From: an uncultured Eubacteriales bacterium | GTDB lineage: Bacteria > Bacillota > Clostridia > Oscillospirales > CAG-382 | DNA length: 54,701 bases | Reading direction: 5' to 3' | Assembly: GCA_934444485.1 (NCBI GenBank) | Contig: CAKSCN010000002.1 | Span: forward strand, 1 to 54,701 | Part shown: in pieces, positions 8,029-54,701 of the stretch | How the letters are laid out: each line of letters begins with the position of its first letter | How positions within the stretch are numbered: position 1 is the first letter of the stretch | The notes under the pieces: model-generated | What the model saw: the letters and a program-made list of their open reading frames with translations, nothing else | The model's database searches: none | Told to the model about the DNA's origin: nothing | Translations under genes and position numbers: made by a program

Positions 8029-8384
8029 AAAACCACCAAACCAAATAAATAATTGAGAATTGAAAATTGAGAATGGAGAATTGAATCAGAGTGGAGAGTA
8101 CGAAAGCAAAGCTTTCGTCAGAGTGAAGAGTGGAGAGTGGAGAGTGGAGTTAAGGTAGAAAAGCTTTGCTTTTCAAATTGGAAATCTCTCTTCCGTTGTC
8201 GTACACGCTTTAAATTCGCACCAAATAATTATTGAAGAAAAACGACGGCAGGAGTTTTTCAACACTAACGTGCCGCAGACACATTTCACATCGAGCGAAG
8301 CGAGATATTTCACGCATTCCGCAAGGAATGCATTTCACGTGTTCCGCAAGGAACACATTTCACTTGGAAAAGCCCTGCTTTTCC
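8029..8384. repeat. Modular repeat locus L1 (microsatellite words, mini-hairpins, GTGAAAT four-hairpin module)
   Basis: Contents: GAGAAT/GAGTGGA 7-nt words at 8051-8086 and 8121-8149. Hairpins ACGAAAGC-AAA-GCTTTCGT, GAAAAGC-TTT-GCTTTTC and GAAAAAC-N10-GTTTTTC. ATTTCAC at 8283, 8307, 8332 and 8357, each separated by a hairpin. Confidence 0.85.
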
Positions 8385-11648: not shown

Positions 11649-11709
11649 AATACCGTCAATTACTTGACCGTAAATTTTTAATTATATATGTTGCGAGGAG
11701 ATATGTGTA

Positions 11710-12780
11710 ATGGAAATAATGACTGCAAAAGAAGCGGCGGAAAAATGGGGGATTTCTCAGAGAAGAGTTGCCGTTTTTTGCTCCGAGAACAGAATACCGG
11801 GTGCTCAAATGGTCGGGAATATGTGGCTTATTCCGAAAGGAACCGAAAAACCGGTTGATGCAAGATGCTCCGGCGTTGATAAAGACAGCACAAAGAGTGT
11901 AAAACCTTTTTTGAAATGGGCAGGCGGAAAAGGACAGCTGTTGAAGGAAATTGAGAAATACTATCCGTTCGGCGACGGCAAGATTACAAGGTATGCCGAA
12001 CCGTTTGTCGGCGGAGGTGCGGTGCTTTTCGACATTCTCGGCAAATACGAGCTTGAAGCGGTATATATAAGCGATATAAATGCGGAGCTTATAAACGCCT
12101 ACACAACAGTTCGTGATCACGTTGACGAGCTGACGGAAATGTTGTCTAAATATCAGAGCGAATATGTGCCTTTGGAAACTGAAATGCGGAAAAAGTACTA
12201 TGCTCAAAAAAGGGAAGTTTTCAATTCTTTGAAGACTGCCGGAAACGACAAGGACGGTATCGAAAAAGCGGCGCTTATGATTTTTTTGAACAAGACTTGT
12301 TTCAACGGCTTATACAGAGTCAACAGAAAGGGTTTGTTCAACGTACCCATGGGAGCGTATAAAAATCCTCTTATTTGTGACGAAAAGAATCTCTACGGCG
12401 TTTCCGAAAAGCTCCGTAACGTGAAAATAGTATGCGGCGATTATAAATTATCCGCCGATTTTATCGATGAACACACCTTTGCGTATTTCGACCCTCCGTA
12501 CAGACCGCTTACCGATACGGCAAGTTTTACGGCATATACGGAAAATTCATTCGACGATGATAAACAAATCGAACTCGCAAGGTTTGTTGACAAGATGAGC
12601 GAAAAAACGGCGAAGGTGACGGTGAGCAATTCAGAGCCGAAAAATATTGACGGAAATGACAGTTTCTTTGATGATATTTACGCTAATCACAGGATAAAGC
12701 AGGTAGAAGCAACAAGAATGATTAACTGTAACAGCGAGGCAAGAGGAAGAATTAAGGAGCTGCTTATCAGCAATTATTGA
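11710..12780 (+). CDS. Dam-family N6-adenine DNA methyltransferase with an N-terminal helix-turn-helix extension
   Basis: Motifs FLKWAGGKGQLL and FAYFDPPY (D12 class). The first ~45 aa, MTAKEAAEKWGISQRRVAVFCSENRIPGAQ, look like an excisionase/MerR-type HTH. RBS GAGGAGA 8 nt upstream. Confidence 0.9.
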   Translation: MEIMTAKEAAEKWGISQRRVAVFCSENRIPGAQMVGNMWLIPKGTEKPVDARCSGVDKDSTKSVKPFLKWAGGKGQLLKEIEKYYPFGDGKITRYAEPFVGGGAVLFDILGKYELEAVYISDINAELINAYTTVRDHVDELTEMLSKYQSEYVPLETEMRKKYYAQKREVFNSLKTAGNDKDGIEKAALMIFLNKTCFNGLYRVNRKGLFNVPMGAYKNPLICDEKNLYGVSEKLRNVKIVCGDYKLSADFIDEHTFAYFDPPYRPLTDTASFTAYTENSFDDDKQIELARFVDKMSEKTAKVTVSNSEPKNIDGNDSFFDDIYANHRIKQVEATRMINCNSEARGRIKELLISNY

Positions 12781-12792
12781 GGAGGTTTAAAA

Positions 12793-13329
12793 ATGGACAT
12801 AAGAGAAGGCACTCAACTTATAGATAAAGGCTCGAGAAAAGCAATCATAGAATTTGTTTTCACCGATTATATTATTTTTGTTTTTCAGGGGAGTTTGTCA
12901 CAGTTTGATATTGTTATTAAATACAGAAAAGACGGCAAGCGTATGAGGACTCCCAAACATATCCATTGGGTAGTAGATATTTTGATGAAAATGCAAGGCA
13001 ACGGAGAATTGACAAAGAAGTATTTGTTGTCTGTGCAAAACTGTTGGAATGCTTGTGTTCCGCTTTCAAACAATGATTTTGAAACACTGAAGAATTTAAT
13101 TGAAAACGGAGAAAAGAGAATTGAAATTGAACAGTATTTTGACTTAAATGATTTTGGCGAATATGATGTTGAATTTCTGTATGTTTTGATGGAGTTATTG
13201 GCAGTGCAAGAAAAGACAAACAGGGCAGATGCCTATATGTTTGGCAGTATTATTGAAGAATTGCTTGAAGCTGACAGAGATATTTTCAAAATTATTTCCA
13301 CGGCAGGCTTCGGCGGAAGAAGAGGTTGA
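12793..13329 (+). CDS. Hypothetical protein (178 aa) embedded in the R-M operon
   Basis: RBS GAGGAGG 8 nt upstream. Its stop TGA (13327-13329) is 1 nt before the endonuclease ATG. I could not recognise a motif. Confidence 0.65.
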   Translation: MDIREGTQLIDKGSRKAIIEFVFTDYIIFVFQGSLSQFDIVIKYRKDGKRMRTPKHIHWVVDILMKMQGNGELTKKYLLSVQNCWNACVPLSNNDFETLKNLIENGEKRIEIEQYFDLNDFGEYDVEFLYVLMELLAVQEKTNRADAYMFGSIIEELLEADRDIFKIISTAGFGGRRG

Positions 13330-13330
13330 T

Positions 13331-14194
13331 ATGACAAACAGAAATTTTAACACATGGCTTTCCGGTTTTCGCGAGAGCATTGCCGATTATTCCTATTACG
13401 TGAATTTTGAGAAAGTCTACAGGAATGTTGATAAGGTTAAGGTTGAACTCAACATATTGAATTCGCTTATCGGTTCAAGAGACATCGAAAGAGCTTTTGA
13501 CACTTTAATCGAAAGATATCCGGAAGTTTTAAGGTGCATTCCGTTACTGTTAGCAGTGAGGGCAAATGAGATTTATGCTATTGACGGAGACGGAGAATTT
13601 ATATACAACTTCAAAACTACAAACCAACCAATGGAACAGTACAAAGTATTTATGCAAAAAAACGGTTTGTTCGATTTGATATCTAATCACATTATCAATA
13701 ATTTGGTGGATTATGTAACCGGTGTTGAAACAGGACTTGATTCCAACGGCAGAAAGAACCGCACCGGTCACACCATGGAGAATTTGGTAGAAAGTTATAT
13801 TAAAAAAGCCGGATTTGTTAAAGATGAAAATTATTTCAAGGAAATGTATATTCATCAAATTACCGAAAAATGGGGCATGGATTTATCGGCGATTTCCAAT
13901 CAAGGTAAAATGGAAAAGCGTTTCGATTATGTAATTAAAACGCCTAATATGATTTATGGCATTGAAACTAACTTTTATGGCAGTGGCGGCAGTAAGCTAA
14001 ATGAAACAGCCCGTAGTTATAAAACACTGGCATTAGAAACCGATACCATAGACGGTTTTACATTTGTATGGTTTACAGACGGAAAAGGCTGGACAAGTGC
14101 AAGACATAATCTTGAAGAAACATTTGATGTTATGGAACACATTTATAATATTGATGATATGGAAAACGGGATAATTCAAGAGGTTTTTAAATAA
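13331..14194 (+). CDS. Type II restriction endonuclease, DpnII/MboI family (predicted GATC)
   Basis: 288 aa from the ATG at 13331; the track ORF starts earlier at 13229, inside the previous gene. Blocks NILNSLIGS, LVDYVTGVETGLDSNGRKNRTGHTMEN, NFYGSGGSKLNETARSYK and WFTDGKGW match my memory of R.DpnII. Confidence 0.8.
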   Translation: MTNRNFNTWLSGFRESIADYSYYVNFEKVYRNVDKVKVELNILNSLIGSRDIERAFDTLIERYPEVLRCIPLLLAVRANEIYAIDGDGEFIYNFKTTNQPMEQYKVFMQKNGLFDLISNHIINNLVDYVTGVETGLDSNGRKNRTGHTMENLVESYIKKAGFVKDENYFKEMYIHQITEKWGMDLSAISNQGKMEKRFDYVIKTPNMIYGIETNFYGSGGSKLNETARSYKTLALETDTIDGFTFVWFTDGKGWTSARHNLEETFDVMEHIYNIDDMENGIIQEVFK

Positions 14195-14943
14195 TGGCAG
14201 AAAAGAAAATTAAAAAGTGGGAGCCTGATGATTTTGAACTTGAAATGACTACGCACTGGTCATTCCCAAAGCGTGGCGATTGGGCAACTCATGATGCAAA
14301 ATGGCGTGGAAATTGGTCACCTTATATACCCAGAAATATTATATTAAGATATTCCGATGAGGGAGATTTAGTTCTTGATCAGTTTGCCGGAGGAGGTACT
14401 ACTCTTGTAGAAGCGAAGCTTTTGAATCGTAATATAATCGGCGTGGATATAAATGATATTGCCCTTGAGCGGTGCAGAGAAAAGACAAGCTTTGAATACG
14501 AACCGGCAAAAGGAAAAGTGTATATCAAGAAGGGCGATGCAAGGAAACTCGATTTTGTACCGGATGAAAGCATAGACCTTATATGCACGCACCCTCCGTA
14601 TGCCGATATTATCAAATACAGCGACGGTATTGACGGAGATTTGTCACAACTGAAAGTGAAGGATTTTCTCGAAGAAATGAAAAAGGTTGCGGCAGAGAGT
14701 TACCGTGTGCTAAAGAAAGATAAATTCTGCGCCGTTCTTGTGGGCGACACAAGACAAAAGGGCTGTATGATACCTATGTCTTTTGATGTAATGCGTATTT
14801 TTGAAGATGCAGGGTTCAAACTAAAGGAGCTTATTATAAAAGAACAACATAATTGTAAAGCAACGGGATATTGGAAAACCAACAGTGTAAAGTATAATTT
14901 TTTACTTATCGCCCACGAATATTTGTTTATCTTCAGAAAATGA
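14194..14943 (+). CDS. SAM-dependent DNA methyltransferase (N6-A or N4-C type), second methylase of the R-M operon
   Basis: LDQFAGGGTTLVEA (FxGxG) and THPPYADI (PPY catalytic motif). The start overlaps the endonuclease stop (TAATG). Confidence 0.75.
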   Translation: MAEKKIKKWEPDDFELEMTTHWSFPKRGDWATHDAKWRGNWSPYIPRNIILRYSDEGDLVLDQFAGGGTTLVEAKLLNRNIIGVDINDIALERCREKTSFEYEPAKGKVYIKKGDARKLDFVPDESIDLICTHPPYADIIKYSDGIDGDLSQLKVKDFLEEMKKVAAESYRVLKKDKFCAVLVGDTRQKGCMIPMSFDVMRIFEDAGFKLKELIIKEQHNCKATGYWKTNSVKYNFLLIAHEYLFIFRK

Positions 14944-14974
14944 GCTTTCCGAAAATTTTTCGTTCGGAATCCCG

Positions 14975-15003
14975 TTGACAATCGCCGCACGGTACTGTAT
15001 AAT
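14975..15003 (+). promoter_or_regulatory. Consensus sigma-A promoter of the GH28 gene
   Basis: TTGACA (14975-14980), 17 nt, TATAAT (14998-15003). Confidence 0.6.
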
Positions 15004-23477: not shown

Positions 23478-23927
23478 ACATAGCTTTGAAAAGCGAAGCT
23501 TTTTGCCCACAATCGTCAATTGTCAATTTTGAAAGCGCAGCTTCCCGTCATCGCACAACATTTAGACTCGCACAATATAATCATTGCAGAAAAACGACGT
23601 CAGGAGTTTTTCCACCCCAATTCTCCATTTTCCACTTTCAATTCTCAATTATTGAAAAGCGACTTTAGGAGCTTTTCCACAACAACGTTGCGAAGCAACA
23701 TTTCACATCGAGCGCAGCGAGATATTTCACGCACCGAAGGTGCATTTCACGGTTTGCGTAAGCAAAACATTTCACTCGAAAGCGAAGCTTTCATTTTACC
23801 GCTCACGCCTCAAATTCGCACCATATAATCATTGCAGAAAAACGACGTCAGGAGTTTTTCCACCCCAATTCTCCATTCTCAATTCTCCATTCTCCACTCT
23901 CCACTCTCCACTCTCCATTCTTCACTC
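23478..23927. repeat. Modular repeat locus L2
   Basis: Same modules as L1, and it abuts the AraC stop codon. ATTTCAC at 23700, 23724, 23744 and 23769, separated by hairpins. Internal 62-nt direct repeat 23568-23629 / 23816-23877 with 1 mismatch. CGTCAAT and CTCCA(T/C)T 7-nt words. Confidence 0.85.
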
Positions 23928-52149: not shown

Positions 52150-52178
52150 ATTATACCACTTTATAAATGCCGTGTCAA
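52150..52178 (-). promoter_or_regulatory. Consensus sigma-A promoter of the rplU-prp-rpmA operon
   Basis: On the minus strand: TTGACA (52178-52173), 17 nt, TATAAT (52155-52150). It leaves a 5-prime UTR of about 75-85 nt that may correspond to the Firmicute L21 leader (not verified). Confidence 0.65.
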
Positions 52179-52216: not shown

Positions 52217-52900
52217 TTACATATCGGCAACGCCGCACGCTTCCTCGAGGTTGTTTACGGTGTAGGTTGCGCCGTTCGGTTCGGGAAAATTGCGTCCCCA
52301 TTCGACAAGGCACGTATCAATGCCGAACGCATCCCCACCCTTGATGTCGGTTGCGGGGGAGTCGCCTATCATGAGCGAGCGGCTCTTGTCAAAGTCACGT
52401 ATGCGCTCTGCGGCACGCTCAAAGAAGCGCACGTCGGGCTTTCTCTCGCCAAGCTCTTCGGAGGTGAATATATCCTCGAAGTACTTCTCCGTGCCGGACG
52501 CCGCAAGTCTCGAACGCTGCGTTTTTCCGATGCCGTTCGAGAGGATAAAGAGCCTGTGGTTTTCCGAGAGCTTTTCGAGAACCGTCGCCGCACCGGGCAT
52601 AAGGTCGTGTCCCTCGGACAAAAGACTTCTGTAGTATGCGTCCCATTCTGCACCGTCAACCGTGTGACCGAGACTCTGCATTGTGAGCGTGAAGCGGTTT
52701 GCAAGAATATCGGCGACCTCGATTTTGCCGCATTCGTAGTCGTGCCAGAGACGTAAATTTATCGAGCGGTAGAGCTTTTCGGTGTCGGCGTCGAACGGAA
52801 AACCGAACTTTTTGAACACGCACGGCAGCGACTCACGTTCGCTCTTGTCGAAGTCGAGAATTGTGTTGTCGAGGTCGAAGAGAAGTATGGGGTATTTCAT
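52217..52900 (-). CDS. HAD-IA hydrolase, YjjG-like nucleotidase
   Basis: Motif I LLFDLDNTILDF, then SNG, K-P, and motif IV MIGDSPATDIKGG. The ATG overlaps the stop of the upstream CARF-nuclease gene (ATGA). Confidence 0.85.
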   Translation of the reverse strand: MKYPILLFDLDNTILDFDKSERESLPCVFKKFGFPFDADTEKLYRSINLRLWHDYECGKIEVADILANRFTLTMQSLGHTVDGAEWDAYYRSLLSEGHDLMPGAATVLEKLSENHRLFILSNGIGKTQRSRLAASGTEKYFEDIFTSEELGERKPDVRFFERAAERIRDFDKSRSLMIGDSPATDIKGGDAFGIDTCLVEWGRNFPEPNGATYTVNNLEEACGVADM

Positions 52901-54120
52901 CTTTGCATCTTCCTTTCGTCCGTGGCGCAGATACTGCGGAGCTTTGCGATGAATTTTTCCGCAGAAATGACGTCGGTGTCGCCTATCACGGCAATTCCCA
53001 TGTTTTCGGCTCTTTCGAGGAGCGAGAGTCGTGCCGATTCGTTCGCACGGTCGGACGTTGTCACGAGTATCTTCACTGCGTGTTCGCCGCCGTAATGACG
53101 TGCCACGGTGTCAAGCTCGTAGAGTGCTTCCTTTTTTGCGCCGCCGTTCTTGCACGAGATGAATACCGGCACAAAGCCGTGCATGGCAACGACGTCGATT
53201 TCATTTTTCGTACCGCTCTGCGGAACGCCGTCCCAGTCTGCCGAAACGCTCACGGCAATGTCGCCGAAGAAGTCCTTTTCACATTCGGAGAGCATAACGG
53301 CGCACATATAGACGTAGTTTTCGAGAATGTTCCCGGCTTTCGACATACATGAGCGCACAAAATCGTTCTTGTAGCGGTAGGATATTCTGCCGTCGAAGAC
53401 ACGGTAGCCGCTCACAAGACCGGCGAGCATGAGGTCCGACATGAAGTTCACCGACGGAAGCTCGATGTTCTTAAAACGCTCGCTTTTTAAGTAGATGTTT
53501 ATTCTGTTTCCGTTTCTGCCGTACTGTTCGAGAGAAGAGAGCACGGAAATCTGCCTGTTCCAGAGCCTTGTGTCACGGCGGCAAATGCCCCACAGAGCGT
53601 TAATGTCACGCCTGTCGTTTTCGGAAAGCACCCTGCGGCAGTCGGAGTCACGCTCGCTCAAAACCGCACCGCCGTAAAGTGCGACCGATTCGCCGACCGA
53701 CAGACCTTCACGGTAAATTCGGGCGTGTTCGGCAAAGCTCTGCGCATTTTTAAGCGGCAGTACCGTCATGCCGTTTACGTCGGACTTCACCATGCAGAGC
53801 TTCATTACCTGCGCTACCGCACCGAAAGCCGCCGCAATAAGCTCGTCGCCTCCCGAGAGGTCGAACACGCAGCTGTCGGCGTACTTGTTTGCAATGTAGG
53901 CAACGGCACGCTCAATTTCGGTAAAGTCGCCGTGCGGCACATTGACGTACTCGACGAAGCGTGTGCCGGCGTTCTTTTTGAGAAAGCGTGTGAGAGCCGA
54001 ACGGCGAGACTCGGTCATTTCGTCGGCGTAGCCGATATAGACGGCACGCTCGGGTCGCAGGAGCATTACTCCGGCGGCATTTTCAAGCTGACAGGGGTCA
54101 AATAGTTCGATAAGTGTCAT
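52897..54120 (-). CDS. Card1/Can2-like protein: CARF-like N-terminal domain + PD-(D/E)xK nuclease domain (DUF1887-like)
   Basis: N-terminal FDLSGGDELIAAAFG resembles the CARF D-x-(T/S)-G-G motif. C-terminal NEIDVVAMHGFVPVFISCKNGGAKKEALYELDTVARHYGGEHAVKILVTT resembles the ExD...(E/S)CK nuclease core of DUF1887. RBS GGAGG. Confidence 0.6.
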   Translation of the reverse strand: MTLIELFDPCQLENAAGVMLLRPERAVYIGYADEMTESRRSALTRFLKKNAGTRFVEYVNVPHGDFTEIERAVAYIANKYADSCVFDLSGGDELIAAAFGAVAQVMKLCMVKSDVNGMTVLPLKNAQSFAEHARIYREGLSVGESVALYGGAVLSERDSDCRRVLSENDRRDINALWGICRRDTRLWNRQISVLSSLEQYGRNGNRINIYLKSERFKNIELPSVNFMSDLMLAGLVSGYRVFDGRISYRYKNDFVRSCMSKAGNILENYVYMCAVMLSECEKDFFGDIAVSVSADWDGVPQSGTKNEIDVVAMHGFVPVFISCKNGGAKKEALYELDTVARHYGGEHAVKILVTTSDRANESARLSLLERAENMGIAVIGDTDVISAEKFIAKLRSICATDERKMQR

Positions 54121-54701
54121 AGAACCTCCGGAGAGAGAAAAGCGGGGCTTTTCAGTGAAATTTGCCCTTCGGGCAAGTGATATACGCCTGCGGCGTGTGA
54201 AATATCTCGCTTCGCTCGATGTGAAATGTTGCTTCGCAACGTTGGGGAGGAAAAGCTCCTAAAGTCGCTTTGAAATTGAGAGTGGAGAGTGGAGAATGGA
54301 GAATTGATGTTGAAAAGCGGAGCTTTTCAAAAATTGAAAATTGAGAATGGAAAATGGAGAATTGATGTGGAAAAACGCTGAAGCGTTTTTCTTCAATATT
54401 TGAATGGTGCGGAGTTTGAGGGTGTGCGGCGAAGGGAAAGAAAGGCAGAATTCATAATGCATAATTCATAATGCATAATGCATAATTGACGTTGAAAAGC
54501 TTAGCTTTTCTTCAATATTTGAATGGTGCGGAGTTTGAGGGTGTGCGGCGAAGGGAAAGAAAGGCAGAATTCATAATGCATAATTCATAATGCATAATGC
54601 ATAATTGACGTTGAAAAGCTTAGCTTTTCTTCAATATTTGAATGGTGCGGAGTTTGAGGGTGTGCGGCGAAGGGAAAGAAAGGCAGAATTCATAATGCAT
54701 A
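54121..54701. repeat. Modular repeat locus L5, including a 119-bp tandem array that runs off the window
   Basis: Four-hairpin GTGAAAT module at 54137-54240. GAGAATG/GAGTGGA words at 54272-54309 and 54329-54367. Identical 119-bp units at 54391-54509 and 54510-54628, with a partial unit at 54629-54701. Confidence 0.9.

Follow-up and report, generated by a model that had tools for sequence, protein, structure and literature searches.

What does a protein built like the signal-activated nucleases of type III CRISPR systems do at a chromosomal site without CRISPR genes? This question is raised by a 407-aa protein encoded near one end of a 54,701-nt stretch of DNA, called the window here, from an uncultured Eubacteriales bacterium of the CAG-382 lineage (contig CAKSCN010000002.1). 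An earlier note on this stretch described the gene as an orphan encoding a Card1/Can2-like CARF nuclease, translationally coupled to a gene for a YjjG-like HAD nucleotidase, and raised the pairing as a possible undescribed system. We found that the 407-aa protein is an uncharacterized relative of Can2/Card1 with an altered CARF motif and that it belongs to a clade encoded mostly away from cas genes. On balance, and with modest confidence, we favor the view that it is one of the stand-alone members of a large chromosomal Can2/Card1 clade restricted to Clostridia and probably reads a messenger made by Cas10. As we discuss below, the properties of the putative ligand pocket and the genomic distribution of the clade leave room for other explanations, which we weigh in turn.

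Profile and structural searches place the 407-aa protein in the Can2/Card1 fold family, with a Can2-like architecture. The Pfam Card1_endonuc model (PF09002) matched it with an E-value of 7e-10 (39 bits versus a cut-off of 26.4), and the PADLOC model CARF4--CARF_PDDEXK spanned residues 2–397, the full length, with an E-value of 1.3e-27; for CARF4, we rely on the names of PADLOC models and on the Can2 papers. A single-sequence phmmer search of the PDB returned nothing relevant, and profile and fold searches were needed. A profile of 40 homologues found Can2 (7BDV, 1e-8) and VC1899 (1XMX, 4e-4) in the PDB. An AlphaFold2 (AF2) model of the protein (predicted local distance difference test score 89.6; predicted template-modeling [TM] score 0.89) had VC1899 as its best Foldseek match (4e-22, TM 0.72/0.76), and further neighbors were Can2 (about 1e-19), Cdn1 (2.5e-18), Card1, and Can1. 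The model aligned to VC1899, Can2, Cdn1, and Card1 across about 400 columns and showed, within a single polypeptide, a CARF domain followed by a helical insertion and, at the C terminus, a PD-(D/E)xK domain; the length of the protein falls within the range of about 350–440 aa used to define this architecture. In the model, the insertion consists of four helices and a β hairpin and corresponds to the insertion domain described for Can2 and VC1899 (PMC7969007, PMC10783487). All domain boundaries given here are estimates. The peptide strings quoted earlier for this assignment (FDLSGGDELIAAAFG, NEIDVV, FISCKNG, and LYELDTVARHYGG) all occur in the translation, and the Card1/Can2-like architecture drawn from them is borne out by the agreement among PF09002, PADLOC, and AF2/Foldseek.

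For comparison with relatives, we assembled 79 species-level loci, called open reading frames (ORFs) by a crude procedure that greedily takes the longest ones, and clustered the neighboring genes. Across all 79 loci, the motif residues of the nuclease domain (E267, N306-E307-x-D309, with Ile as x in the window protein, and F320-x-S322-C323-K324) were invariant, and SCK was present in 263 of 263 family proteins. These residues align with the NELD...IECK residues of Can2 and VC1899 and complete the E-ExD-(E/S)CK motif published for most Can2 orthologues (PMC10783487). Based upon this intact catalytic motif, the window protein is likely to be competent as a nuclease. A further invariant segment specific to the clade, D295-W296-D297-G298 (DWDG), lies within the restriction-endonuclease-like (REase) domain. 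The invariant Ser322, which replaces the glutamate of an ExK motif, could be taken as the mark of an inactivated enzyme. We rejected this idea because (E/S)CK is published for Can2 and because the equivalent Ser356 of TbrCan2, whose catalytic residues are E304, E341, D343, and K369, takes part in outer-sphere metal coordination (PMC10783487).

The clade to which the protein belongs is large. Its three closest database proteins are 96, 88, and 68% identical to it, and comparison of the nuclease gene with these relatives gave ratios of nonsynonymous to synonymous substitution rates (dN/dS) of 0.12–0.15, indicating purifying selection. Other homologues are only 32–40% identical, yet strongly conserved (mean column identity 55%). 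In total, the clade comprised 768 clusters at 50% identity (E ≤ 1e-30) and was present in 531 GTDB species, nearly all represented by Clostridia metagenome-assembled genomes.

What links this clade to type III CRISPR systems? A PADLOC census of the genes at positions ±1 and ±2, combined with targeted scans of the 79 loci, revealed a family member in an operon with type III cas genes in four of them, three of the cmr1-6 plus corA type (L011, L047, and L084) and one of type III-D (L087). In three of these four cases the gap to the cas genes was just 9–25 nt. In a neighbor-joining tree, the four cas-linked members fell in two separate places among stand-alone copies, and they carry all of the clade motifs, including the acidic-acidic GG(D/E)(D/E) segment found in the window protein. 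A k-mer screen detected no CRISPR array in the related loci, the four cas-linked ones included; such arrays presumably lie outside the flanks. Based upon the operonic cases, this is a type III accessory family, most members of which are encoded away from cas genes. The window copy is one of these stand-alone members, set among housekeeping genes. The description of the gene as an orphan therefore holds for the window, where no cas gene was found, and does not extend to the family. In the three cmr plus corA loci, the family member is the only other accessory gene beside cmr and corA (with or without cas6b), and between the flanking housekeeping genes we found no NrN, DEDD, or SAM-AMP lyase gene (SAM being S-adenosylmethionine), unlike the CorA loci in the literature.

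If the window protein reads a Cas10-made messenger, its mechanism would resemble that of its structural relatives. By analogy with Can2/Card1, it would form a homodimer, and a small nucleotide signal would bind at the interface between the CARF domains. Binding would reposition the two nuclease domains, and the E267/E307/D309/K324 site, of the two-metal PD-(D/E)xK type, would then bind divalent metal and cut single-stranded DNA or RNA without sequence specificity. On the simplest reading, the signal would most likely be a second messenger made by Cas10, provided that a type III locus exists in another part of the genome. This assignment is tentative because the DLSGGDE segment of the window protein puts acidic residues where Can2 has the Asn and Lys that bind phosphate.

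Several results weigh against this favored reading; four are given here and a fifth, which concerns the neighboring HAD gene, further below. First, the CARF pocket departs from that of Can2. The NxTGGTK motif is reported to be conserved in all seven Can2 clades and to mediate binding of cyclic oligoadenylate (cOA) (PMC10783487), and the window protein has D87-L-S-G-G-D92-E93 in its place. This change is common to the whole clade, with a CARF consensus of DxTGG(K/D/E)(E/D): the Asn position is Asp in 216 of 234 clade proteins, and at the Lys position 226 of the 234 carry an acidic residue and a single one carries a basic residue. The Can2 residues that contact cyclic tetra-adenylate (cA4) are S19, T42, K99, and Y118 (PMC7969007). 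In a profile alignment to 7BDV, S19 corresponds to D8 (Asp in 66 of the 79 loci) and K99 to E93, Y118 aligns to K112 (Gln or Arg in most clade members), and the counterpart of T42 is uncertain, as the alignment there runs across a gap. The orphan VC1899 has a similarly acidic pocket, and cA4 does not activate it (PMC7969007). Taken together, the altered motif, the acidic D8 and E93, and the VC1899 precedent make canonical cA4 activation of the window protein doubtful as judged from sequence, and the replacement of NxTGGTK by DLSGGDE likewise weakens the earlier, implicit assumption of activation by cA4 or cyclic hexa-adenylate (cA6). Second, 75 of the 79 loci (about 95%) have no cas gene at positions ±1 or ±2, and of the 43 loci whose flanks reach 5 kb or more on each side only 2 are cas-linked. 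Third, synteny with core genes (SecA, the rplU operon, mreBCD, Spo0A) is stable, within sub-clades only. Fourth, searches of plasmids, phages, and IMG/VR contigs found no relative of the nuclease. With the synteny and the chromosomal location considered, the gene resembles a chromosomal gene passed on by vertical inheritance more than it does a typical defence gene.

These points are best accommodated by the main rival explanation, in which the protein is, like VC1899, an orphan with a role outside CRISPR: a vertically inherited chromosomal nuclease that responds to a cellular ligand not made by Cas10, or is ungated, with the cas links being secondary or ancestral. The scarcity of nearby cas genes, the lack of copies on mobile elements in the collections searched, and the synteny within sub-clades fit such a role, and the neighboring genes are mostly housekeeping genes (SecA, Spo0A, response regulators, mreBCD, and an AAA+ ATPase gene with clpP), with no neighbor cluster present in more than 7 of the 79 loci. 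Two distant clade representatives, on short contigs, also had housekeeping neighbors. The best structural match is itself an orphan whose acidic pocket does not respond to cA4 (PMC7969007), and in two sub-clades, that of the window and that of L051/L063, the gene lies directly upstream of rplU-prp-rpmA-obg. Nevertheless, a purely non-CRISPR role does not readily explain why cas-linked members arise in two separate parts of the tree among stand-alone copies, why they share every clade motif down to the acidic-acidic GG(D/E)(D/E), or why three of them sit within 25 nt of cas genes; moreover, type III accessory genes may be encoded far from cas loci. We therefore regard a non-CRISPR role as a serious but distinctly less probable alternative to sensing of a Cas10-made messenger.

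A few clade members have more suggestive surroundings. One stand-alone member, in locus L074, lies beside a gene (L074:7443-9872) for an 809-aa AAA+ protein that matches PDC-M37B/DolB/TRIP13 models, and other stand-alone members have two neighbors with TIR_2 domains and two with RyR domains. Because such neighbors are defence-like, some copies may lie in defence islands. Two family proteins, P0077 and P0105 (699 aa), carry a C-terminal metallo-β-lactamase-fold domain (PF00753), a second hydrolase fused to the CARF nuclease; the genes for metallo-β-lactamase-fused members (L006/L007/L029:10001-12100) lie between a response-regulator gene and a gene for a GDSL lipase.

The composition of the cas-linked loci raises the further possibility that what the clade senses, or degrades, is not a cyclic oligoadenylate but SAM-AMP or a different Cas10 product with a positive charge. 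In the cmr plus corA loci, the family member would then act as an additional effector dependent on SAM-AMP or would take the place of the signal-degrading NrN, DEDD, or lyase enzyme. CorA of the CorA-1 cluster is activated by SAM-AMP and is normally accompanied by one of these enzymes (PMC10600005, PMC11229360), and type III loci tend towards a single signal (PMC11229360). Three of the four cas-linked loci are of the cmr1-6 plus corA type. In L011, all scanned ORFs between the PGA_cap and HlyD genes encode Cas proteins, CorA, or the family member, and none of the ORFs called and scanned there encodes NrN, DEDD, or a SAM-AMP lyase; one 75-aa antisense ORF in this interval was not scanned. The nearly universal Asn-to-Asp and Lys-to-Glu/Asp changes in the CARF motif of the clade can also be rationalized in this way, as they resemble in kind the substitutions N300-to-D70 and R436-to-E151 by which Cas10 is adapted to the positive methionine moiety of SAM (PMC10600005). 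However, this evidence is correlative and comes from three loci in two sub-clades, the type III-D locus L087 also encodes a CARF-HEPN Csx1/Csm6 protein that points to cOA signaling there, some CorA clades have been proposed to use cA6 (PMC11229360), and none of it bears directly on the stand-alone window copy. We consider a SAM-AMP-directed clade improbable, and we give a similarly slim chance to the more specific idea that its acidic CARF pocket evolved for a positively charged Cas10 product such as SAM-AMP, so that the clade would be no cOA receptor at all.

Does the overlapping HAD gene reveal what the nuclease does? The 227-aa protein scored 205.5 bits against NCBIfam TIGR02254 (YjjG_YfnB; cut-off 159.9) over residues 5–220, in agreement with the earlier assignment, and matched Pfam HAD_2 with an E-value of 1e-22. 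Its translation contains the HAD motifs DxDxT (FDLDNT), SNG, K, and GDSxxxD (GDSPATD), and it had no PADLOC match, with only HAD models recognizing it. By predicted family membership, it is an ordinary house-cleaning YjjG-type nucleotidase. The stop codon of the nuclease gene (TGA, 52899-52897) overlaps the start codon of the HAD gene (ATG, 52900-52898) to give ATGA, and an AAGGAAG Shine-Dalgarno sequence lies 8 nt 5′ of this ATG, in agreement with the proposed translational coupling.

The overlap and the Shine-Dalgarno sequence indicate co-translation and would suit a two-gene module in which the phosphatase processes either the signal or nucleotides set free by nuclease action. Purifying selection acts on both genes (dN/dS 0.09–0.15), and relatives as distant as 68% identity retain the pair with its overlap, past a synonymous divergence (dS) of about 1.8, at which synonymous sites are saturated; this persistence is the fifth result that weighs against our favored reading, and a lineage-specific functional coupling of nuclease and HAD protein is possible. 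The rplU gene appears to have a promoter-like site of its own, so that the pair seems to be a separate unit, and HAD phosphatases act as type III effectors when fused to CARF domains, as in Chp (PMC12715507). Against a module stands the distribution of the pair. A YjjG-like gene adjoins a family member only in the window and in its relatives at 96% (L089), 88% (L001/L002/L003/L008), and 68% (L088) identity, and all of these paired loci keep the whole VanY...nuclease-HAD-rplU-prp-rpmA-obg order; tblastn found no YjjG-like gene within ±10 kb in 77 other species-level loci. In addition, the HAD protein scores as an ordinary YjjG/YfnB equivalog without a PADLOC match, and in L051 (7887-11499) and L063 (9995-12069) about 130 nt separate the nuclease gene from rplU-prp-rpmA(-obg) downstream, and no HAD gene intervenes. 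As the pairing is confined to a lineage that retains the entire VanY...rplU-obg synteny, it is explained by shared ancestry, and the adjacency is a gene-order trait of one lineage rather than a family-wide two-gene system. The proposal of an undescribed nuclease-HAD system thus fails the linkage test that the earlier note itself had set, and we judge the two-gene module to be very improbable and largely refuted. L051 and L063 belong to a second, unrelated sub-clade, in which the position beside the rplU operon is thus found again without the HAD gene.

Table 1. Positions of features in the nuclease-HAD region of the window, with gene orders of the four cas-linked related loci
Feature	Sequence	Positions	Strand	Basis or gene order
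Gene for 407-aa Can2/Card1-like CARF + PD-(D/E)xK protein	Window	52897..54120	-	ORF, PF09002, PADLOC, AF2 model, Foldseek
CARF (Rossmann-like) domain, about aa 1-125; D87-L-S-G-G-D92-E93, conserved D8 and N14	Window	53746..54120	-	Model secondary structure, 7BDV/Cdn1 alignment, column counts
Helical/beta insertion joining CARF and nuclease domains, about aa 126-258	Window	53347..53745	-	Model elements H142-H258
PD-(D/E)xK (REase) domain, about aa 259-400	Window	52921..53346	-	Columns invariant in 40 and 79 sequences
Gene for 227-aa YjjG/YfnB-family HAD-IA pyrimidine 5′-nucleotidase	Window	52217..52900	-	ORF, TIGR02254, HAD_2, motifs
ATGA stop/start overlap of nuclease and HAD genes	Window	52897..52900	-	Sequence reading; same in L089, L001, L088
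GGAGG Shine-Dalgarno sequence, 4 nt ahead of nuclease-gene ATG	Window	54125..54129	-	Direct sequence reading
Perfect TTGACA-17-TATAAT promoter-like site with TG, between HAD stop codon and rplU	Window	52150..52178	-	Promoter scan, 12/12 matches
Gut-1 RNA motif (RF01706), 33 nt 5′ of nuclease start codon	Window	54153..54232	+ (opposite strand)	Rfam, 63.4 bits versus gathering score 50
cas-linked family member	L011	1485-11202 (type III-B locus)		PGA_cap, member-cmr1-cas10b-cmr3-cmr4-cmr5-cmr6-corA-cas6b, HlyD
cas-linked family member	L047	10040-18912 (type III-B locus)		Same locus type as L011
cas-linked family member	L084	1-7745 (type III-B locus)		cmr1-cas10b-cmr3-cmr4-(unscanned gap at cmr5 position)-cmr6-corA-member
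cas-linked family member, type III-D	L087			member-cas6b-csx20-csx1/csm6-cas10d-cas5/cas7

Downstream of the HAD gene, on the same strand, lie rplU, a gene for a Prp protease, rpmA, and obg. The promoter-like site ahead of rplU matches, by its sequence, a perfect extended -10 sigma-70 consensus, which suggests that the rplU-prp-rpmA-obg operon probably has a promoter of its own and that the nuclease and HAD genes probably form a separate unit. Rfam detected no L21-leader in the 147-nt spacer ahead of rplU at E ≤ 0.1.

Is there a type III locus within reach of the window copy? Consistent with the earlier statement that the window contains neither cas genes nor a CRISPR array, no match to a CRISPR-DR family was found by Rfam in the 54.7-kb window, no repeat-spacer array was found by a tandem-repeat scan, and no cas family was present among the best 25 of the 60 PADLOC families matched by 46 window ORFs, all of which were restriction-modification or other non-cas models. 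Sequence past the window edge is known through relatives of 88–96% identity; in the 88% relative L001, the next 10 kb contains VanY, aconitase, and other metabolic genes and no cas gene. Over this combined extent, then, no type III locus was found near the window copy. One clear defence system, and no other, was detected in the window: a DpnII-type restriction-modification module at about 11700-15000, with a Pfam DpnII endonuclease, a D12-class N6-adenine methyltransferase, and an N6_N4 methylase; this region is a low-GC patch (GC 0.38 at 12–14 kb).

The side upstream of the nuclease gene had been described as filled by repeats, and the spacer at 54121-54701 is indeed repeat-rich, with the Gut-1 RNA motif, hairpin repeats, and 2.6 copies of a 119-bp tandem repeat. 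The Gut-1 motif is kept in the 96% relative (L089:176-255) and was undetected in the 88% relatives, and the whole upstream spacer is missing in the 68% relative L088. We treat this motif as context and claim no membership for it in the gene pair. The copies of the 119-bp repeat (54387-54701) are 100% identical, run off the end of the window, and contain runs of the heptamer ATGCATT together with hairpins of the form AAAAGC-nnn-GCTTTT; two more intergenic regions, at 8051-8363 and 23868-23927, have heptamer and hairpin repeats similar to these. They look like an intergenic repeat family specific to this genome. A CRISPR array was considered for these repeats and rejected, as whole units are 100% identical, lack unique spacers, and have no CRISPR-DR match in Rfam.

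The window locus itself is thus mostly ordinary: in one lineage of gut Clostridia, a Can2-like gene stands beside a house-cleaning nucleotidase gene, ahead of the rplU operon. The clade deserves attention, being large and strongly conserved, keeping the Can2 catalytic site, and replacing the supposedly universal NxTGGTK motif by an acidic one. It is encoded mostly away from cas genes and, where cas-linked, is found mainly in cmr plus corA loci in which no SAM-AMP-degrading enzyme was found. These properties bear on the ligands of orphan CARF proteins like VC1899 and on whether SAM-AMP signaling has effectors besides CorA. If the clade did recognize SAM-AMP, it would provide that pathway with its first CARF effector or with its first signal-degrading phosphodiesterase gated by a CARF domain, and stand-alone copies, that of the window included, would either take their cue from a remote type III locus or sense an endogenous cationic nucleotide, SAM-derived or other.

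How does the window pair compare with known systems? For the HAD protein, the comparison is simple: it matches the YjjG/YfnB family (TIGR02254) over its full length, above the equivalog cut-off, with the HAD-IA DxDxT and GDxxxD motifs, and we detected no difference other than its unusual position overlapping a Can2-like gene. The closest precedent for the pair is Chp (CRISPR-associated HAD phosphatase), a group of HAD-transmembrane-CARF fusion effectors described in 2025 (PMC12715507). A link between CARF and HAD proteins is thus not new. Chp likewise ties a HAD phosphatase, which acts on ATP, dATP, and IMP, to a CARF sensor (PMC12715507). By contrast with Chp, a single membrane protein in type III-A loci, the window HAD protein is the product of a separate gene, soluble and of YjjG type, with neither a CARF domain nor transmembrane helices; its CARF neighbor bears a nuclease effector of its own, and their adjacency is lineage-specific.

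The nuclease can be compared with several characterized proteins. Can2 and Card1 (SthCan2; TsuCan2, 7BDV; TresuCard1, 6WXW/6XL1; TbrCan2, 8Q3Y) are cA4-activated ancillary nucleases of type III CRISPR systems. The window protein shares with them the order of CARF domain, helical insertion, and PD-(D/E)xK domain, Foldseek E-values of 1e-19 to 1e-13 (TM 0.64–0.69 for SthCan2 and Card1, about 0.55 for TbrCan2), and a complete E-ExD-(E/S)CK motif, and some members of its clade share operons with cas genes of type III-B or III-D. It differs in having only 13–16% sequence identity to them, in the replacement of NxTGGTK by DLSGGDE and of the Can2 contacts S19 and K99 by D8 and E93, and in the invariant DWDG of its clade. 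The best structural match, VC1899 of Vibrio cholerae (PDB 1XMX), is the founding DUF1887 member and an orphan CARF nuclease. It resembles the window protein in its acidic putative ligand pocket, with Asp9 at the position of Can2 Ser19, and is not activated by cA4 (PMC7969007). The two differ in that VC1899 has ECK where the clade has SCK and Arg96 where the clade has Glu or Asp at the position of Can2 Lys99; in addition, VC1899 comes from another phylum and is not itself cas-associated (PMC7969007), whereas clade members sometimes are. Finally, Cdn1 (PDB 8Z4I/9U49) is a CARF nuclease activated by both cyclic tri-adenylate (cA3) and cA4 (PMC12825302). Although Cdn1 keeps NVTGGTK and is CRISPR-associated, it has the same overall fold as the window protein and shows that the CARF pockets found in this fold family are not limited to cA4 as a ligand.

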